54,966 bases of DNA, taken from a virus (lineage: Duplodnaviria > Caudoviricetes). Positions 1 through 50,023 of the stretch are shown in pieces. Positions within the stretch are counted from its first letter, which is position 1. Every line of letters begins with the position of its first letter. Under the pieces are notes generated by a model that saw only the letters and a program-made list of their open reading frames with translations, was not told where the DNA came from and ran no database searches. The stretch is from the IMG/VR virus record IMGVR_UViG_3300036782_000031, positions 1-54,966 of that record; one strand, written 5' to 3'. The position numbers and the translations under genes are program-made.

Positions 1-386
1 GAGGGGAGACACCACCTCCGCAGAGGCTCTATACGCTCGGTGCCAACCCGAGCGAGGTGCTAACTTGCTTACTTGCCCTCGGCTCGTCCGCTATGTAGTT
101 AGTCAGAGGAGAAGGCTGACGGGCCACGACCTAATCGCCTGGCGCCAGCAAAAGAACGTCACCAGGCACACCGGCCTGAATCCCACGCGGGACCCTACGT
201 TGACGCACACTGGCGACCCGCCAGCCTTCGCTCTGTTTTGCCGAGTGCCGCTGCACTTCCCAACCCCTTAGCGGACTACGGGGCGAGCGGCTCCTTGAAC
301 ACCGCCCTTAGCATGATGACCTTGGTTCCGGCCTGCTCGGCTACCGCTATTCAGTTTTCCGGGGAGCCGCGCTCCCTCGGCCTTAC
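1..386 (-). ncRNA. Candidate long structured non-coding RNA (3' part runs off the window)
   Basis: No credible ORF. Lies downstream of a leftward TATACT -10 (393-398). Nested complementary arms at 86-93/269-276, 104-108/231-235, 111-123/217-229 and 137-144/160-167; hairpins at 34-54 and 362-376. Confidence 0.55.
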
Positions 387-392
387 AACTAC

Positions 393-422
393 AGTATACC
401 CTACGCACTGCAGTTTCGCTCC
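393..422 (-). promoter_or_regulatory. Phage promoter, GGAGCG-N18-TATACT
   Basis: Same spacing and CTGCAG spacer as the copies near 5414, 5876, 10816 and 15399. Confidence 0.65.
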
Positions 423-574
423 GACAGATCTAGGAAAACTTTCTGTAACTTTGCGTAGTATACTTGACTACGAAACTGGTAACTGGCCTGTATGCGATTG
501 CAGTGGTCTAGGGCGAGTGCAGGGTCCGATCAGGCGCAGTTACCTGTGCACTTTCTACGGACCATTCCGCCTGG

Positions 575-808
575 TCAACGAGCTGCGAGTGCAGTCGCTA
601 TCCAACCGGCTGACCAAACGAGCCAGCCAGCGTCGGCCGCCCAACGCTGGCTGACCCTGCGCGCCGCATGCTTCCGCTCGTGCTCCGTCACGGGTATGGT
701 CAGGCCCGGACGGACAAGCCGCAGCGCGCGTAGGTGTAGGTTGTGGCTGACGAGCTGATGCACCAGAGGCGCACCGAGCCCGATCAGCACACAGGCGGCC
801 ACCCACAT
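575..808 (-). CDS. Small membrane protein, last gene of the traB-like operon
   Basis: 77 aa with hydrophobic N- and C-terminal segments; starts 1 nt after the upstream stop. Confidence 0.5.
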   Translation of the reverse strand: MWVAACVLIGLGAPLVHQLVSHNLHLRALRLVRPGLTIPVTEHERKHAARRVSQRWAADAGWLVWSAGWIATALAAR

Positions 809-809
809 G

Positions 810-1259
810 TCAGTGCTTCTTGGAAGCGAGGTTGCCGTCGGCCGTCCAGATCAGCTCCAGGTTGTCGTCGGCCAGCTGGTCGGCGTCCTGGGCGATGCCC
901 GCCTGGGCGCGGTCCTTGGGCTGGAACGCAGACACCGGGATGACCTGGGTCTCGTCCGCGTCCTGGACCGGCATCGGCTCGGTGTCGGTCGCCATCTGGA
1001 TCGCGTTGGCCTTGTGCTGCTTCCGGCTGGCCCAGGTGGCCCGCAGGATGCCCCGCGCGATGAACAGCACCAGCGCGGTACCGGCCGCGATGACGACAGC
1101 CCACATCGCGATCTTGAGAGCCTCGACGATGACGTTCCAGTACATGTAGAAGAAGACCGCGACGCAGACGATCGCCCCGGCCACGAACAGGGCAGGGCTG
1201 CACTGTGCCGTAGAGCACTGGCGCACCGCCCACTTCTGATAACGCTCCCACAGCTTCAT
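810..1259 (-). CDS. Two-TM membrane protein (Spd-like accessory)
   Basis: 149 aa, two hydrophobic helices, acidic C-terminus; ATGA overlap with the ATPase gene. Confidence 0.75.
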   Translation of the reverse strand: MKLWERYQKWAVRQCSTAQCSPALFVAGAIVCVAVFFYMYWNVIVEALKIAMWAVVIAAGTALVLFIARGILRATWASRKQHKANAIQMATDTEPMPVQDADETQVIPVSAFQPKDRAQAGIAQDADQLADDNLELIWTADGNLASKKH

Positions 1260-2938
1260 GCTGCAGCCCTACCTTTCCTGTTTTCGAGAGCGTAGTCGTG
1301 GAGGAACTGCGAGTCGTCGTAGAATCCCTGGACCCACGTCTGCTCTGAACCCTTAACCATACATATCCTACCTGGCCCGGTCTGGAATGACGGCGCAGGC
1401 GGACCGACGATCCTATCCCACTGTCCTTTCTTTGAGATCGACATGCCGAACACTCCGAAGGCAGCCTTCAGAGACTCACCACCGAGCGCTTTGTCGGTGA
1501 CGTCCTGGAACATCATCTCGCCTCGCATGTTGGCCTGCCGACCGAGCCGCAGGAGCGGCGCGATAGCCTCGCTCCAGATCGGCGGAGTGACCGGGCCACC
1601 GGTTGGCATCTTGAACCGCTTGTAGTAGGACTTCAGGTTGCCGCTGAGGTCGTTGCCCTCGTCCACCAGCACCCAGATGTCGTTGAAGTCCTCCGGCCGC
1701 TTCTGTCCGGTGCGGATGGCCGTGTAGCGCTTCCGGAGCATATCCTCCAGGATGTAGAACACATCCCAGATCTTGTCCATCTCGGACTCCGGGTTGTCGT
1801 AGACATGGACGCCAGGGATGCCACGCAGGTACTCGAAGCTGACCTGCTTCGTGTCGATGCAGTACAGGTCAGCCCACGGGTCGTTGTGGCAGATCTGGGC
1901 AGCCTTGACCAAGAAGCCAGTCGACTTGCCGGTGCCAGAGTCAGCCGCCCGCAGGTGCCACGGCGTATCGCCGTTGTGGCTGGTGACGTAGACGCTCTTG
2001 TCCTCCTGGACTCCGACCGCGTATTTGCCCCGAACCAGCCCTTCGATGTCCGTCAGGTAGTCCCGGAAAGTAGCGGCAGCCGGCAGCCCGCTTACAATCG
2101 GATGCCAGGTCAGCATGCGCGGGTTGGTGGTGGTGCTCCATCGGAAGCGCACCCGGCCGTCCGTGTGGGCCTCCAGCACCTCCTCCACCTGACCGCGCTG
2201 CTTGACCAGAGCCGGGTACCGATCCGGCAGCCGCAGCTCGCCGCGCTCTGGCGTGAGCCGCAGCCCGCGCTCGACCTCGGCCGGGCTCGCGCCCATCTGG
2301 TCAGCCAGCAGCGTAGCCAGCACGCCGACAGGCACCTCGGACTCCAGCTGGGGCTCCTCGGTGACGGTCAGCCTGGCCTTGTTCTCCACCGTCTGCTCGT
2401 CGTGGCTGAACACTGCCTTGGCCTTGCCGGTCATGCTGATGGCTGGCTTGCCGATCGGGTGCTTCCGGATGTGCCGACGCCGCGCCTTCCGGGTGAAGTG
2501 CACGACGAACAGGACCAGCGCGGCGCAGATCAGCCACACGATGGCGCGCAGGGTGTCAACCGGGTCGATGATGATGCCGCACCACGCCGTCAGCCAGGTA
2601 GCCACCAGAGCGTTGTTGCGGATGGCCCGCTGCCAGCGAGTGGTGGTGGTCCAGTAGACAGCCAAGCCCTCCGGCGTCGCGCGGGTCGTGTCGCCTGCAG
2701 TCTTCTTCAGCTTGGCCTCGTCGCCATAGGTGCGCTTCGGATCCAGGTGCAGCCCGGTGTGAACCTGGAACAACAGCCTGTGCATGCGACTTGGACGGCC
2801 AGGGTGGCGCCAGCCCGTGATGTCATGGGCGTAGCCGAACCCAACCGTCCACAAGGCCCAGAAGGCGTACAGGCCATAGATGACCACGAACACCACCCAG
2901 TCCTGCAGGTGGAGTGAACGCAGGAGGAGCCCGATCAT
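1256..2938 (-). CDS. Membrane-anchored FtsK/SpoIIIE (TraB-like) DNA translocase ATPase
   Basis: N-terminal TM helices; Walker A ADSGTGKST; IDTK; Walker B IWVLVDEG; LLRLGRQANM arginine-finger region; GPGR motif near the C-terminus. Confidence 0.85.
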   Translation of the reverse strand: MIGLLLRSLHLQDWVVFVVIYGLYAFWALWTVGFGYAHDITGWRHPGRPSRMHRLLFQVHTGLHLDPKRTYGDEAKLKKTAGDTTRATPEGLAVYWTTTTRWQRAIRNNALVATWLTAWCGIIIDPVDTLRAIVWLICAALVLFVVHFTRKARRRHIRKHPIGKPAISMTGKAKAVFSHDEQTVENKARLTVTEEPQLESEVPVGVLATLLADQMGASPAEVERGLRLTPERGELRLPDRYPALVKQRGQVEEVLEAHTDGRVRFRWSTTTNPRMLTWHPIVSGLPAAATFRDYLTDIEGLVRGKYAVGVQEDKSVYVTSHNGDTPWHLRAADSGTGKSTGFLVKAAQICHNDPWADLYCIDTKQVSFEYLRGIPGVHVYDNPESEMDKIWDVFYILEDMLRKRYTAIRTGQKRPEDFNDIWVLVDEGNDLSGNLKSYYKRFKMPTGGPVTPPIWSEAIAPLLRLGRQANMRGEMMFQDVTDKALGGESLKAAFGVFGMSISKKGQWDRIVGPPAPSFQTGPGRICMVKGSEQTWVQGFYDDSQFLHDYALENRKGRAAA

Positions 2939-3915
2939 AACTCGCCAGTGCCTTCCTGCTGCGCCTCGTCCGGGTGCGCCGCGTCGTAGATGTCCTTGTA
3001 CTTCTGGCTGAGCGCACCCCGGTCAGACACCGGATGGCCGTGCAGCCGCAGCCAGTCTCGCTTGTGCCGGTCGGGCGCGTGGGCGGAGCGACGCCGGGCC
3101 AGCTCGTCCTTCGTTCCTTCGTTCCCGGGCTGGGGAAGGACGGGAGGAACGTCGGGAGGAACGACCGTGGCCTGCTCGGAAGGAACGACGACCTCGGCGC
3201 TGGGAACGACGGGCTCTTGCGCCGCAGCGGATGGCGCAGCCGTGGGGTCTGGCCCTAGGGCTGGCTTGGCGGCCGGGATCGTTCGTTCCGGTCGTTCCAG
3301 GAGTGCGGGCTTCGTTCTGGCGGGCTGGGCGATCGTTTCGCCGAGACGACCAGCAAATGCGTCGGAAAGAGCGCGAGTGCGGGAACGAAGGACGCCCCGC
3401 AGCAACTTCGTGGTCTCGCCCGGGAAAAACACCCAGGAAAGGCGGCCGAAGGAAGGCAGAGCGGCCGGGTAGATGAAGCCAGCCCGCGCCAGCGCACGAC
3501 GCCTGATCCAGCGGGTCTGGAACTCAAACACCACCATCGCCAGGATCGGCAGAGACGACCACAGCGGGATAGCAGCCCGGCTCTCGTGCCCGAGGATGAC
3601 GTGCAGTGCCTGCAGGTAGGCAGACAGGATGGCGATGATGCGGACTGCCATCCGCGGACCTCCACCGCTCATGCCCTCTTCTGCGTACTTGAGCGTCAGC
3701 CCGGCCATGATGAGTGCAGAGCCGTCGAAGACGGTGCTCATGCCGATCGCGAAGATAGGCGGCACACCAAGCTTGCGTGCAACGTAGAACAGCGAGTAGC
3801 CACTGATGGCCAGGATGACGCTCAGGACGATCACCCAGAGCACGCTGTCCCAGACCGTGACTGCGGCCTTGCGGACCCTTTTGCCGATCGGAGCATCGGC
3901 GTTACCCTTGCTCAT
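2935..3915 (-). CDS. DUF2637/Spd-like 4-TM protein with Pro-rich linker and C-terminal Lsr2-like DNA-binding domain
   Basis: TM pattern S..SL..VA...G....A.....VFDG...S....LH; C-terminal RDWLRLHGHPVSDRGALSQKYKDIYDAAH resembles the Lsr2 motif REWARxxGxxVSxRGRIP. Confidence 0.75.
   Translation of the reverse strand: MSKGNADAPIGKRVRKAAVTVWDSVLWVIVLSVILAISGYSLFYVARKLGVPPIFAIGMSTVFDGSALIMAGLTLKYAEEGMSGGGPRMAVRIIAILSAYLQALHVILGHESRAAIPLWSSLPILAMVVFEFQTRWIRRRALARAGFIYPAALPSFGRLSWVFFPGETTKLLRGVLRSRTRALSDAFAGRLGETIAQPARTKPALLERPERTIPAAKPALGPDPTAAPSAAAQEPVVPSAEVVVPSEQATVVPPDVPPVLPQPGNEGTKDELARRRSAHAPDRHKRDWLRLHGHPVSDRGALSQKYKDIYDAAHPDEAQQEGTGEL
3110..3389. repeat. Cluster of eight GGAACGAM 8-mers in both orientations (clt/TRS-like)
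   Basis: Forward: 3158-65, 3182-89, 3203-10, 3382-89. Reverse: 3110-17, 3118-25, 3282-89, 3291-98. Near matches at 3146 and 3311. Confidence 0.8.
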
Positions 3916-4063
3916 GCGCTCACCTTCTTCCGGTAGGTGTTGCTGCTAGGTCCCGGTCTGTTCCGCCAGATACAGGCCGGGGCCGATATTGATCTTAAGG
4001 ATAGGCGTCCGCAGCCGTCCTGGCTACACGGCGTGGTCAGGAGCCCAGCGTATCCTTAGCTAC

Positions 4064-4630
4064 ATGATTAAAGCAATACAGACCCACTATGCTGGGTATT
4101 GGTTCCGCTCGCGCCTGGAGGCGCGGTGGGCGGTCTTCTTTGACACCACTGGCATTGAATGGCGCTACGAGCCAGAGGGTCTGGTTGTCGACACCCCGGA
4201 AGGCAGGATTCACTACCTGCCGGACTTTCTGCTCCCGAATCAGTGGGGCGAGGCCAAGGGCTATCTGCAGGACGCGAGCGTCGAGCGGGTCTGCTCTCTT
4301 GCGGCCGGGATGACCCGGTGCGAGGACAAGGACAGCATGGACCTTGTGATCCTGGGCGACATCCCCCGGCCGAACTCAGACCTGTGGCCGGTCCAGCTCC
4401 ACTACCATCGCGGCAAGCTGTGGGGCGTGGCCTGGGATCCTACTGAGGCTGGCTGCCCGATGGGTCGCCCCCATGTGCGTGTCGTCCCCGACGCCTTGAA
4501 CGCCGAGAGGCTGACGGAAGGATTCCCGTTCGGAGCGCCACCGCGTTGGGCTGTTGAGGGTTTGGACGCGGCTCGGCAGGCACGATTCGAGTTCGGCGAA
4601 TCGGGTCGGCCATCAGAGCGTGCGCGATAG
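4064..4630 (+). CDS. PD-(D/E)XK-family nuclease-like phage protein
   Basis: FRSRLEARWAVFFD..WRYEPEG..YLPDFLL..WGEAKG; ATG 7 nt after a TATCCT -10, so possibly leaderless. Confidence 0.8.
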   Translation: MIKAIQTHYAGYWFRSRLEARWAVFFDTTGIEWRYEPEGLVVDTPEGRIHYLPDFLLPNQWGEAKGYLQDASVERVCSLAAGMTRCEDKDSMDLVILGDIPRPNSDLWPVQLHYHRGKLWGVAWDPTEAGCPMGRPHVRVVPDALNAERLTEGFPFGAPPRWAVEGLDAARQARFEFGESGRPSERAR

Positions 4631-4754
4631 CCACCAGCGCCAGGTCCGCGATCGTGCGCGGCTGCTCGGGGTCGTTGAGCATGTCGTCGATCAGCAGCAG
4701 CATCCGCTCGCCTTCGTCCAGGTGATCCTGCTCGTCGAAGTAGTTAGCTCTCAT
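4440..4754 (-). CDS. Hypothetical protein
   Basis: Coupled to the upstream gene; 3' part overlaps the nuclease gene on the opposite strand. Confidence 0.45.
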   Translation of the reverse strand: MRANYFDEQDHLDEGERMLLLIDDMLNDPEQPRTIADLALVAIAHALMADPIRRTRIVPAEPRPNPQQPNAVALRTGILPSASRRSRRRGRHAHGGDPSGSQPQ

Positions 4755-4983
4755 CGCGGTGCCGCCGTTCGCTCTCGCGGGAGCCGCGCCGCGCTTCCAG
4801 CTCGTCCTCGTCCAGGAACCGGCGCTCGTCGCTGTCGGCGTACTTGTCCTGCTCGGAGGCGACCGCGCTGCCTCGCTCGGCGTAGTAAGCTGTCATTCTG
4901 CGCCCGGTGCTGAGCCGGAAGTAGACCATCAGCCCGGCAATGATGGCGATGGCCAGCCCGCCCACGATCAGATCGGACGTCAT
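4744..4983 (-). CDS. Small membrane-anchored protein
   Basis: MTSDLIVGGLAIAIIAGLMVYF N-terminal TM; ATGA coupling. Confidence 0.7.
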   Translation of the reverse strand: MTSDLIVGGLAIAIIAGLMVYFRLSTGRRMTAYYAERGSAVASEQDKYADSDERRFLDEDELEARRGSRESERRHRDES

Positions 4984-5126
4984 GACTGCAGCTCCTTGGC
5001 TCGCAGGGACATGATGTAGGCCAGGACCTGGATGACGTCGCAGGCCATGTTGAGCAGGAACAGGATGACGGCCAGGTGCTGGAGCAGACGGATCGTGTTC
5101 AGCATCGCCTCGTAGAAGAGCGTCAT
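4980..5126 (-). CDS. 48-aa hydrophobic protein (not in ORF track)
   Basis: MTLFYEAMLNTIRLLQHLAVILFLLNMACDVIQVLAYIMSLRAKELQS; ATGA overlaps at both ends. Confidence 0.65.
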   Translation of the reverse strand: MTLFYEAMLNTIRLLQHLAVILFLLNMACDVIQVLAYIMSLRAKELQS

Positions 5127-5380
5127 GCCGTCGCCTCCCGGTCGATGCGGAGGCCGAGGCCATCTCGGACGATGTTGCGGATGACCAGGAGCAGCCCGGT
5201 CAGGAGCGCCAGGATGATGGTGACGCTGACGATGAGCATCATGCTGATGCTGACCTGGGTGGTGCCGATGGTCGCGGTGACGTGGAGCTGAAGGATGTAG
5301 AACAGGAACGCCAGCGCGGCGATCGTGATCAGCACGGGGTGACGGTTGTTCCGGCGGCTCTTGCGGTTTCTGCGGTTCAT
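5123..5380 (-). CDS. Two-TM membrane protein
   Basis: Basic N-terminus and two TMs; GAAGGCGAG at 5384-5392. Confidence 0.75.
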   Translation of the reverse strand: MNRRNRKSRRNNRHPVLITIAALAFLFYILQLHVTATIGTTQVSISMMLIVSVTIILALLTGLLLVIRNIVRDGLGLRIDREATA

Positions 5381-5413
5381 GATCTCGCCTTCCGTTGTTC
5401 TCGCCTTAGGTAC

Positions 5414-5443
5414 AGCTTACGCGGTGGGCTGCAGTTTCGCTAC
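5414..5443 (-). promoter_or_regulatory. Phage promoter GTAGCG-N18-TAAGCT
   Basis: Member of the repeated promoter family. Confidence 0.65.
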
Positions 5444-5498
5444 CCTTTTGTGGAGAAAGTTTGGTGGGCAGGAGGCGGGTTGGCCCCCTGCCCGGCTC

Positions 5499-5708
5499 TT
5501 AGGCGGCTGGCGTTCCGGTGAACCAGCCTTCGCGAGTGATGCGCCGCATGAACGGGTCGTCCAGGCTGTCGGAGTCCAGGACGATGCCGATGGCCTCCAT
5601 GGCCTCGTCGGCGGAGCTGAGGTGCTTGTCGCCCTCGTCGTCGTTGTTGGCGTCCAGCTGGGTGTTGACGATCTGCCGGATCATCACCATGCGCTCTTCG
5701 TCAGTCAT
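5499..5708 (-). CDS. Hypothetical acidic protein
   Basis: ORF with ATGA coupling to the upstream gene. Confidence 0.65.
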   Translation of the reverse strand: MTDEERMVMIRQIVNTQLDANNDDEGDKHLSSADEAMEAIGIVLDSDSLDDPFMRRITREGWFTGTPAA

Positions 5709-5869
5709 GCCCATTCCTCAATCGTCTCTCGCGGGTCGATGTCGCTGCAGTTGCCGGCCCGGTCCATGCACCAGGTGGTCCACATCGCGGCCTGGAACTC
5801 AGTCACGCTGCTGTCGCTGATGGTCCGGACCTCTTTGCGGGTCGGGGTGATGCTCGCCTTCGTGCTCAT
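5705..5869 (-). CDS. 54-aa hypothetical protein, probably leaderless (not in ORF track)
   Basis: MSTKASITPTRKEVRTISDSS...EEWA; ATG 6 nt after a TAGACT -10. Confidence 0.6.
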   Translation of the reverse strand: MSTKASITPTRKEVRTISDSSVTEFQAAMWTTWCMDRAGNCSDIDPRETIEEWA

Positions 5870-5875
5870 ACCTAC

Positions 5876-5905
5876 AGTCTACGCTAGCAGACTGCAGTTC
5901 GCTAC
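5876..5905 (-). promoter_or_regulatory. Phage promoter GTAGCG-N18-TAGACT
   Basis: Member of the repeated promoter family. Confidence 0.65.
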
Positions 5906-6090
5906 CCCTTCTGGCGCTCTTTCTCCATGTCGGCTAGGCGAGCCGCGTGGATCCACATCGCCTGGGTCCTGCCCTGGGTGTACTGCCACTCGGTGGGCAC
6001 CCGCGCGCCGTTGGTCCTGATGGCCTGGATCTGACGAAAGACGCCGTAGGCTTCCTCGGCGTCCTTCATCAGCTCGCTGATCTCCTTCAC
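5902..6090 (-). CDS. Hypothetical protein
   Basis: 62 aa; GTGA overlap with the DUF2786 gene. Confidence 0.65.
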   Translation of the reverse strand: MKEISELMKDAEEAYGVFRQIQAIRTNGARVPTEWQYTQGRTQAMWIHAARLADMEKERQKG

Positions 6091-7112
6091 CCGATCTGCC
6101 GCTTCTCAGCAGTCCCGACGTTGCCGCCCAGGTCGGCGGAGTTGGCCTGCCGGACACCGGCGCTGTAGCCAGCGTCGCTGAACGCCTGCTCCCGGAACCG
6201 CATCGCCGGGTGGGCGCGGCAGTGGCCGCTCTTGGCCTTCTTGCAGTTCGGGCACTCCGGCACGTCCTCGGCCTCCTTGAACATGTCCGGGTTCTGCTCC
6301 TTGAAGAAGGCGTTGAGGTCGTTGGCCGCATTCGCCAGCACCAGCTCGGCTCCGGTGCCAGCCTCGCGGCCGGACTCCAGCTTGGACAGCCGACCGCGCA
6401 TCCTGGCGACGTAGCCTTGCGCCGCGCTGCGACGGAACGTCTCGCTGGCGCTCGCCGGGATGGACAGCACCTTCTCGCCTCGCGCCTTACAGGCGCGCTG
6501 GCAGGCTCGCTTGTAGTGGGAGCCAACAGTCCAGTTGGACTTGCGCTCGCCCAGCTTGGCGTTGACGTACATGACGGGCTGGGTGTCCTCGGGCTGGATG
6601 TCCCTGGCCTTCTTCCAGCCGTACTCGCCTGCGATCTCTAGCCAGTTCAGGCCAGCCTTGTGCAGCTCGTAGGCGTTGTCCTCCAGCGACCTGGCCGGGT
6701 CGACCTTGGGACGCAGCGCGCCGATCATGTGGAGCCGGAGGGTGGTGTACAGAACCTCGAAGTACCGCAGGTCCGACTCGAAGCCGTAGACCGTGCTGCG
6801 GTACCCGGCCTCGTTCGTCCACTTGGTGTACTGCCGAATCTTGCAGCGGCAGGTCCGAGCGCAGCTCGCGGCCAGCTGGGCCACGTAGCCAACCAGGTCG
6901 TAGTCGGGGGTCAGGTCGATGTCGATGATACCAGGCTTGGCGCGCTGCGGGGCCGGACGGCTGGCGTCCAGCTCGGCCTGCTCGATCGCGTACTTCAGCA
7001 TCAGGCTGTCAGCCATCTGCCGCGCCGCGTTGGCCTCTTCCACGCCGGTGCCTGGGTGCTCGGCGATCGCGACCAGCTTACGGACGCGCTCCAGAACGGT
7101 GTTCAGTTCCAC
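6087..7112 (-). CDS. DUF2786-domain protein
   Basis: N-terminal VLERVRKLVAIAEHPGT..EEANAA..MA..LM.KY; FRRS...GY motif. Confidence 0.8.
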   Translation of the reverse strand: MELNTVLERVRKLVAIAEHPGTGVEEANAARQMADSLMLKYAIEQAELDASRPAPQRAKPGIIDIDLTPDYDLVGYVAQLAASCARTCRCKIRQYTKWTNEAGYRSTVYGFESDLRYFEVLYTTLRLHMIGALRPKVDPARSLEDNAYELHKAGLNWLEIAGEYGWKKARDIQPEDTQPVMYVNAKLGERKSNWTVGSHYKRACQRACKARGEKVLSIPASASETFRRSAAQGYVARMRGRLSKLESGREAGTGAELVLANAANDLNAFFKEQNPDMFKEAEDVPECPNCKKAKSGHCRAHPAMRFREQAFSDAGYSAGVRQANSADLGGNVGTAEKRQIG

Positions 7113-7146
7113 TTTTGCCTCTCGCCTTCGGGTCTCTTGCTCTCTG

Positions 7147-7197
7147 CCTTACGTAGGGTATAACCCCGGCCGGACTGGTAACCATACCCGGCCGGGG
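7147..7197 (-). promoter_or_regulatory. Promoter cassette GGTATGG-N19-TATACC..CGTAAGG inside an inverted repeat
   Basis: One of four similar copies (7147, 7491, 8699, 9450). Confidence 0.7.
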
Positions 7198-7205
7198 CAA
7201 CTTTC

Positions 7206-7469
7206 TTACAGCTTGGCGTTCACCGAGTCGCCCGGCTTGCGGATCGGGCCGACCACGAGAAGGTCAGCCACGTCGCACCAGAACTGGACGGTGGCGTCCT
7301 CTTGGTCGGTCGCGACGCCGTTCACGGTCACGACCTCGTCGATGAACTGGAGGACCAGCGCACCCGGTCGGGCAATCCGCTCGACCAGGATGGTCAGCTT
7401 GCCGATCTCGTCCTGGTCAATCAGCGTCAGCTTCATGGCCTCGGATCGGACCCAGCTCGTGTCAGTCAT
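7206..7469 (-). CDS. Hypothetical protein
   Basis: Start placed after GAAGGCGAG (7472-7480); the upstream ORF extension is the promoter. Confidence 0.7.
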   Translation of the reverse strand: MTDTSWVRSEAMKLTLIDQDEIGKLTILVERIARPGALVLQFIDEVVTVNGVATDQEDATVQFWCDVADLLVVGPIRKPGDSVNAKL

Positions 7470-7490
7470 TTCTCGCCTTCCTGTTGACTG

Positions 7491-7531
7491 CCTTACGTCT
7501 AGTATAACGCCAGCTGACTGCAGACCATACC
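7491..7531 (-). promoter_or_regulatory. Promoter cassette GGTATGG-N18-TATACT..CGTAAGG
   Basis: Repeat copy. Confidence 0.7.
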
Positions 7532-7541
7532 GCAAAAGTGC

Positions 7542-7569
7542 AAAAAGAAACCCCGGCTGGCGACCGGGG
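7542..7569 (-). terminator. Intrinsic terminator
   Basis: CCCCGG/CCGGGG stem followed by a U-rich tract on the minus strand. Confidence 0.7.
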
Positions 7570-7586
7570 CTGGTTGGCGGCTTGGG

Positions 7587-7796
7587 TCAGCCAGCAACGT
7601 GGAAGTAGTGGAGGACGATGGCGATCAGGATGGCCACGGTGAGCTCGATCAGGAAGTCGTGCCCGGCCTCGCGCGCCTTCTCCTCGATCCGGCGCTCGAT
7701 GCTCTCGGGGATCTCGACCGCGATGGCCTGGGCGTTGATGTGCTGGCAGTAATAGCTGGGGTAGGTCTCCTGGCTGGGGTGCTGGATCGGGTTCAT
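7587..7796 (-). CDS. Small protein with C-terminal TM
   Basis: GAAGGCGAG at 7801-7809; FLIELTVAILIAIVL. Confidence 0.7.
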   Translation of the reverse strand: MNPIQHPSQETYPSYYCQHINAQAIAVEIPESIERRIEEKAREAGHDFLIELTVAILIAIVLHYFHVAG

Positions 7797-7892
7797 CGGG
7801 CTCGCCTTCCCTCGGGGTCTCGCTTACAGTTCAATCATAACCTGCAGTCCGATCCGGGGTAAAGCAGTTTCCAGTTTTATTTCCTGGAGTTT

Positions 7893-8048
7893 TCAGGCCC
7901 AGCCTTCCCGGCGCATCTCCCGGAGTGCCTGCCGGTAGCCTTTGCGGTACTGGTGCCGCTGCCAGAAGCTGCCACGCGGGCTGCGCGGCGACCTGCGCCG
8001 CGCGTCCCAACGTCCTCTGGCTAGGTTGAAGTCTGTCCTGCGCCTCAC
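7893..8048 (-). CDS. 51-aa basic protein (not in ORF track)
   Basis: VRRRTDFNLARGRWDARRR..QYRKGYRQALREM..; GTGA overlap. Confidence 0.5.
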   Translation of the reverse strand: MRRRTDFNLARGRWDARRRSPRSPRGSFWQRHQYRKGYRQALREMRREGWA

Positions 8049-8756: not shown

Positions 8757-8999
8757 TCAGGAAAGAATGCTGATCGCTGCCTCGAAGTCGGCCCGCAGCT
8801 TCTCGACATCCACGCCGCGCCGGAACGCCTTGACGATCGGCAGGCTGATCTCGTTGATGAAGTCGCTTTGCGCCTCGAACTGGTCCGGGTCGCTCTCGTC
8901 GCCCGGGACCTCCAGCGTGACGCCTAGGTGGTCGGGCCGGACCTCGTGGCTGTGCTCGGCGTAACCGTCGTGGGCCATCAGGCCAACGTGCTGTTCCAC
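8757..8999 (-). CDS. Hypothetical acidic protein
   Basis: GTG start after GAAAGGCGAG. Confidence 0.7.
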   Translation of the reverse strand: MEQHVGLMAHDGYAEHSHEVRPDHLGVTLEVPGDESDPDQFEAQSDFINEISLPIVKAFRRGVDVEKLRADFEAAISILS

Positions 9000-12260: not shown

Positions 12261-14258
12261 GTGAACAATGCTCTGGAACACGCACATTCCCTGATCAAGA
12301 TGGGTGTGCCTGTTTTCGCAGCCAAGCTGGATGATGAAGGCGACCCGGACCCCAAGAACGACCGCAGATGGGCGCGGTGGCACAAGAAGCAGCCTGACCC
12401 GGCTGCGCTAGCTTCGTACAAGCCTGGTGACGCGCTGTGCGCTGTTACCGGGATCGTGTTCGACGTGATTGACTGGGACCCGCGCAATGACCCCGACAAG
12501 AAATCGTTCAACAGGCTGAGGGAAGAACTGGGCGAAGGCGGACCCAAGATCTACTGGCAGGTGGCCACGCCTAGGCGCGGACGTCACTTGTATGTCGCCA
12601 AGCTGGGTGTGGGCAGTCACAATGGCTTCCTACCTGGCATTGACGTTAAAAGTGGCAAGTCGGATGGCACAGGTCGCGGATTCGTGTTCCTGCCAGGTAC
12701 CGAGCGCAACGGCGGCAAGTACCAGCCGACGTCTCGCTTGCAGGTGCTGAATGGCGTGCCGGATGCAAGCGGTCGCTCGCTGGCCGAATTCATCGAGCAG
12801 TGCCTAGAGGATCAGCGCAACGCGGCCGATGCAGCTGCCTCTGGTGCCAAACGCGAACAGCCGGACGAACTCAAGCGCGCCGTGCTCACTGCTGGGTCGG
12901 GTGAACAGCGTACGGCGCTGCTGCGCTATGTGCACGAGCTAGAACGGCGCGGCTACGCTCGAGACGATATCAAGTCGATTCTGCGAGACGTCTGTTCCCA
13001 GATGCGGAACTTTGACAGCAAGGATCCGTGGTACCCAGCTCGGGGCAATCCTGACAAGCACATCAACGGTCTGTTCCACCGCGCCGGTGCTGTCGTGGCG
13101 GATGGGACGAAGGAAGAGCTGGAGGGAATTCGCGGTCCTAGTCGACCGGGTCTGATGCGGAGCTTCGCCGAGGTCACGACGCGGAAAATCAGCTGGGTGT
13201 ATCCGCCGTATCTGGCGCGCGGCGAAATGACGATCCTGGACGGCGAGAAAGGTGTTGCCAAGTCGCTCACGATCCTGGACGTACTCGCGCGGCTGACTGA
13301 AGGTCGGGATCTCCCAAATGGCGAAATGACCGGCGAGAAAATGAACGTGGTCATCTTCACCAACGAATCCAGTGCGGAGACGGAAATCGCGCCTAGGCTG
13401 CAAGCTGCTGGTGCGAATCTCAGCATGGTGCACGCTCCGAAGATCGAGAAGGACAAACGGGGCAAGGTGAAGGAAACGTGGATCCTGCCAGATGGCTTTG
13501 AGGCGTTCGATCGCGCCATTCGTGAATGCGATGCTCAGGTCGCTGTGTTTGATCCTATCAACGATTTCCTGCAGGAAGATATCAACACGAACAACGATGC
13601 GTCTATCCGGCGGGCTCTCGGGCCGCTGGGTCGTGTTCTGCAGCAGACGGGCTGCGCCGGATGGCTAGTCCGGCATATGAACAAGGACACAGGTGCTAGT
13701 GCGCGAATGCGCGGAACCGGAACAACGGCGTACCAGAATAGGGCCAGAATCCACATGGTCGCTGGACGGCTGCCTCCGGGTGCTGTGGATGGCGCCCGGT
13801 TTGGCCTGGCTGTCGTAGATTCCAACATTCGGAAGGTAGAGGATGCGGTCCTCGCCTACAACGTCGTAGATTCGGACATTGAGGCGGACGACGCCGGTGG
13901 CATGGTGCCTGTGGTGGAATGGTTCGGCATGTGCAACGTCAAGGCCGATGATCTCGTCAAGGAGAACACCGGTAAGCGGCGCGGTCCGGAACCGGTCGCA
14001 CAAGAGGCGATTCGGGAAGTTCTGGACGACATGTTCTCGCGGAAGGACACATGGGCTCGCGCTCGTGTCCTAGCGGAGCTGAAGGCGGCCGGGTGCTCTA
14101 CGAACGAGAAAACGATCAACAAGGTCAGGGACATGATGGGAATCAACGCTGTTCGTGTTATGCGACGCGGTGGGGAAGGCGGAGGCGTGGATCACTGGAA
14201 TTGGACCAACCTGACCGTCAAGGGTCGCGTGCAAGTGCAAGGCGACGATGATGACTGA
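12261..14258 (+). CDS. Bifunctional primase-polymerase fused to a RecA-type/AAA helicase
   Basis: FDVIDWD and TPRRGRHLY prim-pol motifs; Walker A GEKGVAKS; VFDP; LVRHMNK; RGT. Confidence 0.85.
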   Translation: MNNALEHAHSLIKMGVPVFAAKLDDEGDPDPKNDRRWARWHKKQPDPAALASYKPGDALCAVTGIVFDVIDWDPRNDPDKKSFNRLREELGEGGPKIYWQVATPRRGRHLYVAKLGVGSHNGFLPGIDVKSGKSDGTGRGFVFLPGTERNGGKYQPTSRLQVLNGVPDASGRSLAEFIEQCLEDQRNAADAAASGAKREQPDELKRAVLTAGSGEQRTALLRYVHELERRGYARDDIKSILRDVCSQMRNFDSKDPWYPARGNPDKHINGLFHRAGAVVADGTKEELEGIRGPSRPGLMRSFAEVTTRKISWVYPPYLARGEMTILDGEKGVAKSLTILDVLARLTEGRDLPNGEMTGEKMNVVIFTNESSAETEIAPRLQAAGANLSMVHAPKIEKDKRGKVKETWILPDGFEAFDRAIRECDAQVAVFDPINDFLQEDINTNNDASIRRALGPLGRVLQQTGCAGWLVRHMNKDTGASARMRGTGTTAYQNRARIHMVAGRLPPGAVDGARFGLAVVDSNIRKVEDAVLAYNVVDSDIEADDAGGMVPVVEWFGMCNVKADDLVKENTGKRRGPEPVAQEAIREVLDDMFSRKDTWARARVLAELKAAGCSTNEKTINKVRDMMGINAVRVMRRGGEGGGVDHWNWTNLTVKGRVQVQGDDDD

Positions 14259-14484: not shown

Positions 14485-14713
14485 CCAAACGCGAGGCGAA
14501 TGTCCGATATGCCACAAGCTGCCCGCTGTACATCCTACGGTGGTGGCTTTCTCCGATATTCGGACTTCTAGGGACTGTGCCTGGATGTTGAAGATACTAC
14601 GCATCGAAACTGACGTCGTAGATCCGATTCTCGCGCGGGTCGGCGTTTCTACGTCGGGTACAGTACGGCGTGAGCTGGCGATACTCGTTTTCGGCTACAT
14701 TAATCGGTCTTAG
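14468..14713 (+). CDS. Hypothetical protein (CxxC)
   Basis: 81 aa, CPICH. Confidence 0.45.
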   Translation: MSAPNSQTRGECPICHKLPAVHPTVVAFSDIRTSRDCAWMLKILRIETDVVDPILARVGVSTSGTVRRELAILVFGYINRS

Positions 14714-14876
14714 AAGGTATAGATCTACTGGGGCGGATAAGTAGGTTAGGGGTTAGAAGGTATATCCCCGCCTACTCTACCGTCTAAGTTCGAAAGTGCA
14801 GTACAGGAAATGAATAACCCCTGGTATAGAGGTTAGAAGGTATAGTAGGTACAGTAAGGGGGGATATACCTTCTAA
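14710..14876. repeat. TTAGAAGGTATA iteron-like repeats, candidate replication origin
   Basis: Direct copies at 14710, 14753 and 14833; inverted copy at 14865-14876; fifth copy at 12104; AT-richer than the surroundings. Confidence 0.7.
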
Positions 14877-15398
14877 GTTCGACGACGTCGCACACCACGT
14901 CCACATTTATTTCCGCTGTAGAAAACGCCTTTTGCAGTGTGCAGTGCAGTGTTACGCTACGTAATCGAAATCGGCCTGCCTTCGCGTGTCTGCTACAGTC
15001 CTTTGCTAGGCAAACTGTATATGGTTAGCGGCGGAAAGGTGTTACCTTTAGCGCGGATAACGATGTGGAGTTCTGCGCGCCCATTACGTACAGTAATTGA
15101 GCGCAGTGCGACTGTCTTGGGGCATCGCTGACCTTCGTGTGCGCCGGTTGTGGTCGTCTGCTGCGTCGCATGCTGGTGTGCATGGGACTGCACATTGGCT
15201 ACGCCATGTGCATGGGACTGTCATGGCAGTGGTACTACCATGGCCAGTTGTTTGCAGTGCTCTGTGTGGTCTCTGTCGCAGATGTATTGGGTGCTGCCTG
15301 CGCTGCAAAATGTCCCGCACAGGTTCACGAGTGGTGTGCACATCCATTTGAGTACATTACAGCATCAACTGATCCCTACCGCAACAGTAGGGAATGCT

Positions 15399-15428
15399 GT
15401 AGCGCGCGCAACCGACACGCGGTATACT
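15399..15428 (+). promoter_or_regulatory. Phage promoter GTAGCG-N18-TATACT
   Basis: Same family, rightward; GAAGGCGAG at 15452-15460. Confidence 0.65.
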
Positions 15429-15465
15429 CAAGCGTAGCGAAGGCGAACAGAGAAGGCGAGCGGCA

Positions 15466-15630
15466 ATGACACGCGTGCAGACTGACTGGATCACCATTGA
15501 GATCCACGACGGACACATCGACATCATGACCACAGACATCAATCAGGACCTGAGCGTCAGTGCCTGGCAGCGCGGCGAGAAGGCCGGGACCATGAACAGC
15601 GGCGTGCTGAGCATCGAGAAGGCGGAATGA
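15466..15630 (+). CDS. 54-aa hypothetical protein (not in ORF track)
   Basis: MTRVQTDWITIEIHDGHIDIMTTD...; promoter and RBS upstream. Confidence 0.65.
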   Translation: MTRVQTDWITIEIHDGHIDIMTTDINQDLSVSAWQRGEKAGTMNSGVLSIEKAE

Positions 15631-15633
15631 CCT

Positions 15634-15960
15634 ATGACGAACATGTGCCACAGATGTGGGCACGCGACGCAGTCAACGAAGCCATACGGCGAGCACTGCG
15701 AGAAGCTGGTCATGGCCGGGGTGACAGCGCTGAGCACGTTCAGCAGAAAGATCACATGCGTGACAGCGGCCGAACTTCTGAGGGAGGGACTCCTAACACC
15801 AGTACCCAATAAGCCAGGCTACTGGACCTGCCCCAGCACACGAGACCCCAACGTCCTGTACGTCGTCACCGACCACTCCTGTACGTGCCCGGCTGCCCAG
15901 CACACCCACAACGAGGTCCTGTGTAGGCACAGGCTGGCGGCGACTGTACTGGCGGCCTAA
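15634..15960 (+). CDS. SWIM zinc-finger protein
   Basis: YVVTDHSCTCPAA..LCRHRLA (CxC-xn-CxH), plus an N-terminal CxxC. Confidence 0.75.
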   Translation: MTNMCHRCGHATQSTKPYGEHCEKLVMAGVTALSTFSRKITCVTAAELLREGLLTPVPNKPGYWTCPSTRDPNVLYVVTDHSCTCPAAQHTHNEVLCRHRLAATVLAA

Positions 15961-17975: not shown

Positions 17976-18383
17976 GTGGACGCGCAGGGGCAGTCCTTCT
18001 ACACAACGCCTGAGCAAGAAGCCTGTCAGGTGCGCTCACCGGGGTGTACGGGCATCGTTGCCCAGCTTATCTTCTGCAGGATAGAAGGCCGATCGCTGCC
18101 GGCGTGCCAGTACTGCTTCGTGCTGTGGCGCACCAAGGTTCGGGACGAGGGCACGCAAGTCCTGGTAAACCGGTGCCCCAACTGCGCAGACTGGCACCCG
18201 GCCACGATCGCCGTCACAGACGTCGCCGCATCCGTTCCGCTCGCGGGTGCGGCGGCTCAGGCAATAAATGATGCCATGTGGAAAGAGGGACTCCTGCAGG
18301 ACGTACGCCGGAAGATACTGATCCGCCTAGCGAATGAGTATCCCTGGCTGGCGACTGCTTTCGAGCGGGAGATCGCCGCATGA
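17976..18383 (+). CDS. Zinc-binding hypothetical protein
   Basis: CQVRSPGC, CQYC, CPNC. Confidence 0.6.
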   Translation: MDAQGQSFYTTPEQEACQVRSPGCTGIVAQLIFCRIEGRSLPACQYCFVLWRTKVRDEGTQVLVNRCPNCADWHPATIAVTDVAASVPLAGAAAQAINDAMWKEGLLQDVRRKILIRLANEYPWLATAFEREIAA

Positions 18384-19732
18384 CAATGCCAGCGATCACG
18401 GAGCACAGGTTCAGTCCGCGCGGCGCGTGTGCTGACCTGTTCAACGCTCGTGATCCTGAGGTGCTCGTCGCAGGCCCGGCCGGGACAGGGAAGAGCCGGG
18501 CCTGCCTTGAGAAGCTCCACATCATGATGCTACTGAATCCCGGGGCACGCGGGCTGATCGCTCGGAAGGCTGCGGTCACGCTCAGCAGCACTGCCCTCGT
18601 GACTTGGCAAAGGTTCGTCGCCAAGGAGGCCATTGAGGTCGGCGACGTCGTGTACTACGGCGGCAGCGCGCAGGAGCCTGCGAGTTACCAGTACAAGAAC
18701 GGCAGCGTCGTCTCCATCGGCGGGCTGGACAAGGTGAGCAAGATCATGTCGGCGGAGTACGACGTGGTCTATGTCCAGGAGGCCACGGAGCTGACAGAGA
18801 ACGACTGGGAGAGCATCACCACCCGGCTGCGGAACTGGCGCATCACGTTCCAGCAGCTGATCGCAGACTGCAACCCGCAATCCCCAGAACACTGGCTGAA
18901 GCAGCGGGCTGACAATGGCAAGACTCTCATGCTGGAGAGCCGCCACGAGGACAACCCCATCCTCTTCACCGGGGATGGGGTCATCACAGATAAGGGTGCC
19001 GCCTACATCTCGAAGCTGGACGCGCTGTCGGGCGTACGGTATCAGCGGCTGCGACTGGGACGATGGGTAGCGGCCGAAGGCGTCATCTACGAAGACTGGG
19101 GCCAGGTCCACCTGACCGACGGGCCGCGCGTCACCACGGAGCACGTAGACAGCTCCGGCATCCCGATGAGCTGGCCGCGCTACTGGAGCGTGGACTTCGG
19201 CTACACCAACCCGTTCGTGTGCCAGTTCTGGGCGGAGGATGGCGACGGCCGGTTGTGGATGTACCGGGAGATCTACCACACGCACCGGACGGTTGACCAG
19301 CACGCCAAGAAGATCCTGGACCTGGTGCGGAACGAGTACGACTCCTGGATCGAGCCGCGTCCGCGCAGCATCGTCTGCGACCACGACGCGGAAGGTCGCG
19401 CCACTCTCGAGGACTGCATCGGCCAGAGCACCGAACCGGCGCACAAGTCAGTGCTGGAAGGCATCGAGAGCGTGCAGCGTAGGCTGCGGCTTCAGCCGGA
19501 TGGCCAGCCGCGCCTCTTCATCCTCCGCTCCGCCCTCGTGGAGCGCGATCAGGAACTGGCTGACGCCGGTCGCCCGACGTGCACGATGGAAGAGCTGCCC
19601 GCGTACGTGTGGTCCAGCAAGAAGAAGGAACAGCCCCACAAGGAAGACGACCACGGCGCTGACGCGATGCGGTATGTCGTAGCCCACAAGGACTTCGGCA
19701 TCCGCCCGATCTACAGGAGCTTCACGGTATGA
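18380..19732 (+). CDS. terL: Terminase large subunit
   Basis: Walker A GPAGTGKS; Walker B VVYVQE; motif III DCNP; nuclease SVDFGYTNP and DDHGADAMRY. Confidence 0.95.
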   Translation: MTMPAITEHRFSPRGACADLFNARDPEVLVAGPAGTGKSRACLEKLHIMMLLNPGARGLIARKAAVTLSSTALVTWQRFVAKEAIEVGDVVYYGGSAQEPASYQYKNGSVVSIGGLDKVSKIMSAEYDVVYVQEATELTENDWESITTRLRNWRITFQQLIADCNPQSPEHWLKQRADNGKTLMLESRHEDNPILFTGDGVITDKGAAYISKLDALSGVRYQRLRLGRWVAAEGVIYEDWGQVHLTDGPRVTTEHVDSSGIPMSWPRYWSVDFGYTNPFVCQFWAEDGDGRLWMYREIYHTHRTVDQHAKKILDLVRNEYDSWIEPRPRSIVCDHDAEGRATLEDCIGQSTEPAHKSVLEGIESVQRRLRLQPDGQPRLFILRSALVERDQELADAGRPTCTMEELPAYVWSSKKKEQPHKEDDHGADAMRYVVAHKDFGIRPIYRSFTV

Positions 19733-23061: not shown

Positions 23062-23198
23062 GGATCATCTACCACGACGACGCCGGGAACATCAGGTATG
23101 CCAACAACTACCATCCCGGCGACAAGCTGCCCGGCAAGACACCGGCAAAGGCCACCGCCGAGGCAGCGCCGAAGGAACCGAACAAGGAGGAGGCATGA
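23058..23198 (+). CDS. 46-aa hypothetical protein (not in ORF track)
   Basis: MRIIYHDDAGNIRYANNYHPGDK...; ATGA overlaps at both ends. Confidence 0.6.
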   Translation: MRIIYHDDAGNIRYANNYHPGDKLPGKTPAKATAEAAPKEPNKEEA

Positions 23199-49950: not shown

Positions 49951-50023
49951 GTGAATACCCTCACAGTGGGTGATTGGGCACGGCTTACACCTGCGATTCG
50001 CAGCGGCGTGCCGGACGCCGTTG

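Follow-up and report, generated by a model that had tools for sequence, protein, structure and literature searches.

A phage-native operon that pairs an FtsK-type ATPase with a remotely SpdB-like membrane protein: a candidate module for DNA translocation across membranes

The closest described systems to the locus reported here are the TraB/Spd transfer and spread kits of the Streptomyces plasmids pSVH1 and pIJ101. SpdB2, the most conserved Spd protein, is described in the accessible part of PMC4447253 as an oligomeric, double-stranded DNA (dsDNA)-binding and pore-forming protein that has four transmembrane (TM) helices and binds TraB. SpdB2 homologues of the temperate actinophages phiC31 and VWB have been proposed to spread phage DNA (Thoma et al. 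2015, in the portion available), and an excerpt of a paper citing the Streptomyces plasmid-phages pZL12 and pFP4 describes them as capable of both conjugation and particle formation. For phage FtsK-like genes, the accessible text of PMC11536984, PMC4569894 and PMC10117723 proposes replication, DNA segregation or the manipulation of development; in the same portion of PMC11536984 such a gene is merely named. Herein, we analysed an operon of four genes at positions 575-3915 of the window, by which we mean the whole stretch of DNA under study, a 54,966-bp IMG/VR virus record (IMGVR_UViG_3300036782_000031) with a CheckV completeness of 58%. A sequence-only reading of this window had taken the operon for a domesticated TraB/Spd-type module through which a phage may spread its genome without making virions.

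We found that gene 2 of the operon encodes an FtsK-type ATPase of an unannotated family, and that gene 1, directly upstream, encodes a DUF2637-like membrane protein with a predicted Lsr2-type DNA-binding domain. Tentatively, with a probability of about 0.45, we read the operon as a membrane dsDNA-translocation complex of the plasmid transfer/spread type that would move phage DNA across a septum or membrane; virion-independent spread of phage DNA is plausible. Literature searches, with most subscription journals and supplements outside their reach, found no paper on a phage TraB/Spd module, and DUF2637 is named in only two papers of the searchable literature.

The operon and its FtsK-type motor

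The four open reading frames (ORFs) of the operon (Table 1) lie exactly where the sequence-only reading had placed four coupled minus-strand genes, all with predicted TM helices. Genes 1 and 2 as well as genes 2 and 3 overlap by 4 nt (ATGA), and genes 3 and 4 are separated by 1 nt. The GC content at third codon positions (GC3) in the operon frames is 0.72-0.93, and a Kyte-Doolittle scan found hydrophobic stretches in all four products. The ribosome-binding site (RBS), GAAGGTGAG, was read directly, 3 nt before the ATG of gene 1 at position 3915. It differs by one base from the GAAGGCGAG sites of other window genes, and sites of this type precede at least six of them, which supports the earlier assignment of the operon to the phage early-gene RBS family. 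GAAGGCGAG was observed upstream of the genes at 5123-5380, 6087-7112, 7587-7796, 8757-8999, 12261-14258, 15466-15630 and 15634-15960; since it is longer than a plain Shine-Dalgarno sequence, it may double as a regulatory signal. No sigma-70-like promoter was found in positions 1-5200. A stretch of ~300 bp (272-574) of lower GC separates the end of the operon from a convergent partial gene (2-271, plus strand); it contains two GTATACT-containing motifs, no ORF passing the GC3 filter and no tRNA or Rfam match.

The identity of gene 2 was assessed by family models, structure prediction and structure search. The Pfam model FtsK_SpoIIIE (PF01580) scored 15.4 bits on the window ATPase alone, under its cut-off of 24, with the match at positions 1706-1939; the same model was matched by 24 of the 29 aligned family members at E <= 0.1 (best 9.9e-7). 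The AlphaFold2 (AF2) model, with a predicted local distance difference test (pLDDT) score of 80.9, consists of TM helices, then an alpha-like domain and then a RecA-like domain. Its N-terminal membrane region has helices at residues 14-41, 101-124 and 126-159, and the hydrophobic stretches cover residues 14-34 and 122-152. Foldseek returned 98 matches at E <= 0.001, headed by the FtsK motor 6t8o (1.2e-13) and TcpA 6o1z (2.7e-13); EccC 4nh0 reached 7e-12, the EccC/EssC structures ranged from 7e-12 to 1e-7, and SIR2/HerA complexes were weaker (1.9e-7 and 1.6e-4). EccCb1 was the only PDB sequence match (E 0.33-0.73). Collectively, the family matches and the predicted FtsK-motor fold (~1e-13) confirm gene 2 as a predicted FtsK/SpoIIIE-superfamily ATPase with intact Walker motifs, in agreement with what had been proposed.

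The 81 close homologues of the ATPase (43-100% identity, ~555 aa) are without exception unannotated metagenome or virus proteins. A profile search against 1.84 billion representatives found 855 relatives at E <= 1e-3, 100 of them at E <= 1e-30, and most of the 855 are 500-650 aa long and terminate just past the ATPase domain. The ESM Atlas cluster of the ATPase is 97% viral, and the adjoining clusters hold actinomycete 'FtsK domain', 'pRL2-11' and 'type IV ... conjugative DNA transfer' proteins; one of 10 distant relatives carries a protein name, a Kitasatospora hypothetical protein. Neither megablast of positions 1-8000 nor tblastn of the ATPase gave a match among 50,697 GenBank phage records, and a scan of viral contigs with the alignment of the sister-clade ATPases gave none either.

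We next compared the ATPase with TraB and with other plasmid translocases. FtsK_gamma, HTH_24, MarR and other classical helix-turn-helix (HTH) families were sought as a C-terminal winged HTH (wHTH) and matched none of the 29 members at E <= 0.1, with one weak wHTH-HSP90_Na-assoc match (E 0.074) as the exception. The positive controls showed their HTH, namely pIJ101 Tra (MarR_2, E 2.9e-5) and gp70 of phage YDN12 (HTH_24, 31.7 bits, above the cut-off). In the structural model, the ATPase stops right behind the RecA domain. BLASTP of the ATPase against pIJ101 Tra gave an E value of 0.29. A tblastn search of plasmids matched 94 records, 54 of them from Streptomyces and 28 from Rhodococcus. The best matches were linear Streptomyces plasmids of 15-18 kb that encode an FtsK-like protein of 828-842 aa, and the 828-aa protein is 30% identical to the ATPase over 237 aa (E 3e-29). 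On these linear plasmids, the FtsK-like gene adjoins a gene annotated 'conjugal transfer protein', with a GntR regulator nearby.

Reference proteins were scored by hhalign probability against the ATPase family profile and by bits against the family hidden Markov model (HMM). The two pRL2-like plasmid proteins ranked highest (828 aa, 99.8% and 143 bits; 842 aa, 99.8% and 134 bits), followed by pRL2-11 (98.9%, 84 bits), the FtsK/SpoIIIE protein of pBD2, encoded beside VirB4-like and M23 genes (98.1%, 54 bits), and a Microbacterium plasmid FtsK/SpoIIIE protein (97.5%, 50 bits). Lower values were obtained for pIJ101 Tra (74.9% over 147 columns, 12.5 bits), gp78 of phage Xkcd426 (67.8%, 5.2 bits), the E. 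coli FtsK motor (51.3%, 6.4 bits) and YDN12 gp70 (1.9%, -0.1 bits).

A tree of 129 ATPase domains (nine family members, 111 unnamed representatives of at least 430 aa and nine references) was built by FastTree with SH-like (Shimodaira-Hasegawa-like) support. Its rows were taken from matches to the profile of the window family itself; they exclude EccC, HerA and terminase, and the branches that unite TraB with E. coli FtsK are long. The window ATPase family formed a clade (support 100) within a group of 71 unnamed sequences, and this group was sister (support 100) to a clade with the pRL2-like plasmid proteins. TraB formed a separate clade, beside E. coli FtsK. The tree thus places the window family outside TraB, leaving the order of the deep clades unsettled, and judged by its sequence gene 2 is not a TraB in the strict sense. 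Its kin are actinomycete plasmid transfer proteins, not the packaging, HerA or EccC ATPases that had been considered as its other possible relatives.

Gene 1, the small membrane proteins and the repeat arrays

Gene 1 matched phrog_10376 with an E value of 4.8e-31. On the window protein alone, DUF2637 (PF10935) scored 13.9 bits against a cut-off of 22.8. The family was therefore considered as an alignment of 14 rows, that is, the window, 10 further viral loci and three database proteins; L013, a duplicate of L012, and L004 and L009, in which a contig end cuts the gene, were left out. DUF2637 was matched by 12 of the 14 members at E <= 0.1 (best 1.7e-11), and the L005 homologue (37% identity, 318 aa) exceeded the cut-off with 28.3 bits. 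The hhalign probability between the gene 1 family and the DUF2637 protein of Streptomyces phage Coruscant was 99.6%. The DUF2637-like character ascribed to gene 1 is borne out by these relatives.

The AF2 model of gene 1 has four N-terminal helices (residues 10-48, 53-79, 85-108 and 115-145; pLDDT 85-94), a disordered linker (195-268) and then a small, confidently modelled C-terminal helical domain. The relation of the TM core to SpdB was examined with a profile of 12 relatives of pIJ101 SpdB, and hhalign aligned the gene 1 family with it at 90.4% probability (E 1.4e-6, 116 columns). D-G, H-A, G-x-E, G-A-W, L-P and W-E-R are common to both, and polar positions of the TM core are shared. The match held at 88.5% after three more diverse sequences were added. 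Its score was 51.3, against at most 21.7 in all controls, which comprised two unrelated TM alignments, a reversed profile and 20 column shuffles (one of them without a result). Pairwise and single-sequence comparisons were silent: BLASTP of gene 1 against pIJ101 SpdB found nothing, the SpdB profile matched no single DUF2637 sequence, and Foldseek gave no match to the TM core. The SpdB Pfam models PF27080 and PF27079 are absent from the scanned library, where pIJ101 SpdB itself matched no family. These profile comparisons suggest that gene 1 is a remote homologue of pIJ101 SpdB. The TraB-plus-Spd kit proposed by the sequence-only reading thus has some support in the probably SpdB-like partner, remote as it is, and fails for TraB, given an ATPase that lacks the wHTH, lies outside the TraB clade and brings pIJ101 Tra to 12.5 bits only.

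The C-terminal domain of gene 1 resembles the DNA-binding domain of Lsr2. On the window protein, Lsr2_DNA-bd (PF23359) covered residues 286-313 with an E value of 0.0048 and 16.6 bits, against a cut-off of 26.9; it was matched by eight of the 14 relatives (best 1.8e-6). The Foldseek comparison with the Lsr2 C-domain 2kng gave a probability of 0.92 and 40% identity over 40 columns, but an E value of 1.9. The Lsr2-type motif is kept in 12 of the 14 aligned relatives and also in the distant metagenome loci L032 and L033, and the other two relatives have a Cys-rich CGNR-like motif instead (zf-CGNR match in one). A predicted complex of residues 1-200 of the ATPase with residues 1-200 of gene 1 scored 0.00; this is no verdict and counts neither way.

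A search with gene 1 matched 91 phage records, 90 of them of Streptomyces phages, and DUF2637 homologues were seen in Streptomyces phages of ~130 kb. In Coruscant (BE-type), the one record of the 91 that was inspected for an FtsK-like neighbour, the DUF2637 gene stands among glycosyltransferase, Dps and nucleotide-metabolism genes and has no such neighbour. If DUF2637 is SpdB-like, those phages would carry a homologue of a spread protein without a motor of their own.

By hydropathy, gene 3 encodes a pair of neighbouring TM helices followed by an acidic tail at the C-terminus, and gene 4 a single N-terminal hydrophobic helix. A gene 3 homologue lies immediately downstream of the ATPase gene in 12 of 13 loci, and gene 4 homologues are found at the equivalent position in two of 13 only (L003 and L011). 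Pfam, PHROG, NCBIfam and PADLOC scans gave no family match for either, and comparisons with pIJ101 SpdA, SpdB, orf66 and KilB, with the neighbours of the pRL2-like genes and with YDN12 gp68 and gp69 found nothing. The two gene products are predicted membrane proteins, as had been claimed; the Spd identity given to them found no counterpart.

The 7-mer with the strongest local clustering in the window is GGAACGA (21 copies, against 7.4 +/- 2.6 expected), and eight of the 21 fall within 278 bp of the linker-coding part of gene 1 (Table 1). A single peptide repeat was considered for this cluster and rejected because both strands and all three frames contain copies. Arrays of other words were seen at matching places elsewhere: 14 copies of GCCAATG in L003, six of them in a non-coding spacer just before the ATPase gene, and nine of AGCGCTA in L012. 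Both arrays mostly encode ANA/ANG and SAT repeats. In L006, CGATAGC occurs six times around the gene 1 start, and no comparable array was found in six of the 11 loci examined, the window counted. These arrays could be putative clt-like sites, operators or slippage products of a low-complexity linker.

Conservation, phage genome and likely host

The gene order was compared across 13 IMG/VR loci. A divergent endonuclease I-like gene, gene 1, the ATPase gene and the 149-aa gene follow each other wherever a contig end spares the locus. Gene 1 is directly upstream of the ATPase gene in 11 of the 13 loci, and an endonuclease I-like homologue of 48-62% identity holds the same divergent place in 11 of 13; in each case a contig end truncates the remaining two. 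In two metagenome loci of 54% GC with a far more distant ATPase, a DUF2637 plus Lsr2-like gene was again directly upstream (2/2). From the order kept in the viral loci and in these distant ones, the pairing of gene 1 with the ATPase appears to be old and functional. G002, a relative of 63,254 bp rated 98% complete, shares 10 of 66 window ORFs, namely those of the module, the endonuclease, DnaE, PHP, DUF2786 and a few others, and in it the module is internal to a long co-oriented early-gene block. The first 100 bases of G002 recur near the end of the record and its PHP and DnaE genes are contiguous across the ends; it probably represents a complete genome, either circularly permuted or terminally redundant. 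Given this synteny in 13 viral contigs, the phage type of RBS and the failure to find an integrase, the module is native to the phage, and related phages do keep the operon.

The window is a genuine tailed phage. The head, tail and lysis genes and the primase and DnaE that the sequence-only reading had listed were all recovered by family identification (Table 1). A tyrosine or serine recombinase was found neither in the window nor in any of four relatives (two rated 97-98% complete), in line with the reported absence of an integrase; Rep genes and att sites were not searched as such. A narrow pattern scan of 185,579 species genomes yielded no confirmed relative of the ATPase family, which is weak evidence of absence. 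Since no recombinase and no genomic copy of the ATPase family were found, the lineage looks lytic rather than temperate, as far as gene content can tell.

Table 1. Features of the operon and of the surrounding phage genome (window coordinates)
Feature	Positions	Strand	Remarks
Gene 1	2935-3915	minus	326 aa; DUF2637-family, remotely SpdB-like (predicted) integral membrane protein
TM core of gene 1	3481-3888	minus	residues ~10-145; aligned with SpdB residues 51-187
GGAACGA cluster	3111-3388	both	8 copies, 4 per strand; linker-coding part of gene 1
Lsr2-like DNA-binding domain of gene 1 (predicted)	2950-3075	minus	residues ~281-322
Gene 2	1256-2938	minus	560 aa; membrane-anchored FtsK-fold ATPase (predicted)
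Walker A, SGTGKST	1922-1942	minus	residues 333-339; G335, G337 and K338 invariant in 29 sequences
Walker B, WVLVDEG	1655-1675	minus	residues 422-428; D426, E427 and G428 invariant in 29 sequences
Gene 3	810-1259	minus	149 aa; small TM protein
Gene 4	575-808	minus	77 aa; small TM protein
RBS of the operon	3919-3927	minus	before gene 1
Endonuclease I-like (PD-(D/E)xK) gene	3989-4630	plus	divergent; Pfam Phage_endo_I E 5.8e-5, below cut-off
PrimPol + AAA_25 helicase	12261-14258		
Large terminase (TerL)	18380-19732		family identification among window ORFs
Portal	20624-22075		family identification among window ORFs
Head protease	22913-24529		family identification among window ORFs
Major head protein	24545-25966		family identification among window ORFs
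Tape measure	33413-36799		family identification among window ORFs
Endolysin	42168-43433		family identification among window ORFs
DnaE-like polymerase	50779-53067	minus	
PHP-domain protein	53336-54316	minus	

The closest relatives of TerL are those of Thermobifida phage P1312 (60% identity) and Streptomyces phage Dagobah (55%), followed by Xkcd426, Mischief19 and cluster BG phages (41-45%). Several of these closest cultured relatives, phages of mycelial actinomycetes, encode FtsK/TraB-like genes. DnaE is closest to cluster-D-type mycobacteriophages such as PBI1 (50%). The mycelial host that the sequence-only reading took for granted is not established; phage kinship points to a mycelial actinomycete as the likely, predicted host.

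Further observations concern the genome as a whole. TerL is also 49-53% identical to genes of two circular Streptomyces plasmids, NZ_CP109332.1 (102 kb) and NZ_CP108279.1 (99 kb), which are probably phage-plasmids; the former, with the 53% TerL, was the one searched for a relative of the ATPase, and it has none. A protein of 441 aa (48718-50043, minus strand) combines LysM, Rpf-type transglycosylase and NlpC/P60 domains. This second cell-wall hydrolase lies on the early strand, away from the endolysin, and is not among the 10 ORFs common to G002. Immediately downstream of the PrimPol-helicase gene, in an AT-richer non-coding stretch (14485-15465) where GC falls to 0.56, the 12-mer TTAGAAGGTATA has three direct copies (14704-14882). 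It also occurs inverted twice, as a perfect TATACCTTCTAA at 14865 and as a diverged copy near 14778, with nested inverted repeats of up to 34 nt. This array is a candidate replication origin or operator array. ATCTGGAA has five copies within 300 bp (35309-35606) inside the tape-measure gene and is probably a coding repeat. No tRNA and no Rfam family was matched in the window.

Function and comparison with known systems

On the tentative reading as a membrane DNA-translocation complex, the parts would work as follows. Gene 2 would be an FtsK-type motor anchored in the membrane, presumably hexameric, and would use ATP to pump dsDNA. Gene 1 would be a four-helix SpdB-like protein that keeps DNA at the membrane by means of its C-terminal, Lsr2-type domain and may provide the DNA recognition missing from the motor; genes 3 and 4 would be small membrane accessory subunits. 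The operon would be expressed together with the early and replication genes. The likeliest job of such a complex would be to move phage genomes through hyphal cross-walls or sporulation septa or into contacting hyphae. A bolder version is doubtful: that lytic phages of mycelial actinomycetes adopted a plasmid-derived, relaxase-free pump, in which an FtsK-like motor is joined by an SpdB-like protein reading the phage DNA with its Lsr2-type domain, and that they send naked genomes by it through cross-walls or into prespores, with the repeat arrays in or beside the SpdB-like gene as their own clt. If true, infection would spread, or persist in spores, without virions.

Several observations weigh against the translocation reading. 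The ATPase is predicted to lack the clt-reading wHTH of TraB, and by family score pIJ101 Tra appears no nearer to it than E. coli FtsK. Genes 3 and 4 do not resemble any Spd or KilB protein, as judged from their sequences. The SpdB-like part can serve another role, since the DUF2637 gene of Coruscant has no FtsK neighbour. The GGAACGA cluster may be a mere by-product of the low-complexity linker. Finally, because the operon is shared together with the DnaE, PHP and DUF2786 genes, a role in replication or segregation fits equally.

The last point belongs to the strongest rival, a membrane-anchored motor working inside the cell. Such a motor would tether, segregate, untangle or resolve phage DNA together with the endonuclease I-like resolvase, or act on the host chromosome or development. 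We consider this rather unlikely, yet it has much to draw on. The operon stands in an early/replication block; with DnaE, PHP and DUF2786 it is common to phages with differing structural genes, as G002 shows; the endonuclease I-like gene is its constant divergent neighbour; the ATPase has no clt-reading wHTH; and the papers cited above propose such roles for phage FtsK-like genes, in the parts accessible. However, the nearest named kin of the ATPase are proteins of plasmid transfer regions and not chromosomal FtsK, a purely cytoplasmic task would need neither an SpdB-like partner nor several TM subunits, and terminase and resolvase normally suffice for phage concatemers.

The operon could also be an exclusion or conflict system that blocks or expels incoming phage or plasmid DNA, or that disturbs plasmid transfer in the host. 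We regard this as improbable. Early phage membrane proteins often mediate superinfection exclusion, FtsK/HerA-type ATPases are known in defence, and SIR2/HerA complexes are among the weaker Foldseek matches. The FtsK and TcpA folds, however, match six orders of magnitude better than HerA, and none of the five proteins matched any of 5027 PADLOC models at E <= 0.01. Moreover, the lineage looks lytic and no integrase was found, so there would be no prophage to defend. Very improbable is an EccC/EssC-like protein-export motor of the type VII secretion kind. EccC/EssC structures are good fold matches and EccCb1 is the only sequence match in PDB, but FtsK and TcpA outrank EccC in Foldseek, the window protein has a single ATPase domain where EccC has three, no other ESX component or WXG substrate was seen among the window ORFs, and the partner gene 1 carries a predicted DNA-binding domain. 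The view of the module as a recent insertion of an actinomycete integrative and conjugative element (AICE) or plasmid fragment, or as a chimeric assembly, and not as a working phage part, recalls that it lies 575 bp from the end of an incomplete record; this view is largely refuted by 13 syntenic viral contigs with phage genes on both sides, by the internal position of the module in two records rated 97-98% complete, by a GC content that agrees with the rest of the genome (0.62-0.66), by the phage type of RBS without an integrase and by the largely viral Atlas cluster of the ATPase. What probability remains falls to some other function.

Returning to the translocation reading, it would bear on a process that is poorly understood, the spread of phages through a compartmented mycelium. 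A virion-independent route would recast how plaques, containment by development and spore carriage are seen in Streptomyces-like bacteria. The operon is a compact, four-gene, phage-native candidate for it that recurs across divergent uncultured phages, with hundreds of motor relatives in the profile search. DUF2637, to which no function is assigned, occurs in 90 cultured Streptomyces phage records and is now tied to SpdB, by probable remote homology. The general idea is bench-testable already, since cultured BG-cluster phages carry true TraB homologues.

Compared with the TraB/Spd kits of pSVH1 and pIJ101, the phage module likewise couples a membrane FtsK-type ATPase in one operon with small integral membrane proteins, and no relaxase or type IV secretion system (T4SS) is present. 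Like SpdB2, the phage gene 1 protein is predicted to span the membrane with about four helices and to be able to bind DNA. Unlike TraB, its ATPase carries no wHTH at the C-terminus and groups outside the TraB clade; the predicted DNA binding of the module resides instead in the Lsr2-type domain with which the SpdB-like protein ends. In the phage the SpdB-like gene opens the operon, whereas the order in pIJ101 is tra, spdA, spdB, orf66, kilB. The module also differs in having no GntR kil/kor regulator, and its carrier is a phage, probably a lytic one.

The closest named kin of the ATPase core are those of the pRL2-like linear Streptomyces plasmids (NZ_CP108050.1 and NZ_CP108466.1) and 'pRL2-11'. 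In these plasmids, too, the gene just before that of the ATPase encodes a TM protein. The plasmid proteins differ in their length of 828-842 aa, with a long C-terminal extension, and their transfer role is given by annotation and context only. The upstream 'conjugal transfer protein' has no detectable relation to gene 1, and an NCBIfam scan of it gave nothing usable.

Among cultured phages, full-length homologues of pIJ101 Tra (40-46% identity) occur in cluster BG/Woodruffvirus phages, where they are annotated 'FtsK-like DNA translocase'; the cluster BG announcement does not discuss TraB-like transfer genes (PMC5511901). Like the window, YDN12 (gp66-gp70), TP1604, Xkcd426 and Geonosis are tailed phages of mycelial hosts with a plasmid-type translocase preceded by TM proteins. 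YDN12 gp70 shares 40% identity with pIJ101 Tra across 653 aa and keeps the wHTH. YDN12 gp69 has three TM helices and a C-terminal HTH and is 35% identical to the plasmid 'conjugal transfer protein' by BLASTP (E 4e-32); tblastn of that plasmid protein against phage records found none, in conflict with this match, and we trusted the pairwise result, as a low-complexity filter is suspected. The YDN12 locus (NC_028974.1, 2560-6965) lies at the genome end and comprises gp66 (two TM helices), gp68 (two to three), gp69 and gp70, with a NUDIX hydrolase gene upstream. Judged by these homologies, gp66-gp70 appears to make up a full transfer kit of the plasmid type, carried by a phage. The cluster BG translocase differs in being a true TraB, while that of the window comes from another clade and found no match in cluster BG by tblastn; the membrane partner also belongs to another family than gene 1.

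For phiC31 and VWB the functional idea is the same, although the available portion of the source cites them for an SpdB2 homologue alone, without a motor, and the likeness is one of description; tblastn of pIJ101 SpdB gave no match in the 50,697 phage records. In the plasmid-phages pZL12 and pFP4, compared by the excerpted description only, a phage genome has a route that needs no virions. Both are stably maintained as plasmids; the window lineage, by contrast, shows no sign of lysogeny or plasmid maintenance among the features tested. With FtsK/SpoIIIE, with TcpA, the coupling protein of pCW3, and with EccC, the window ATPase shares the alpha/beta motor fold (Foldseek E 1e-13 to 1e-11). It differs from FtsK in lacking FtsK_gamma and the four-TM N-domain, and its similarity to E. 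coli FtsK is marginal; from EccC it is set apart by the number of ATPase domains. Taken together, the general idea and several instances of it are already in print or in databases. What this locus adds is a divergent, unannotated ATPase family, a split architecture in which the motor has no DNA-reading domain and its membrane partner has a predicted one of the Lsr2 type, and a link, by probable remote homology, between DUF2637 and SpdB.

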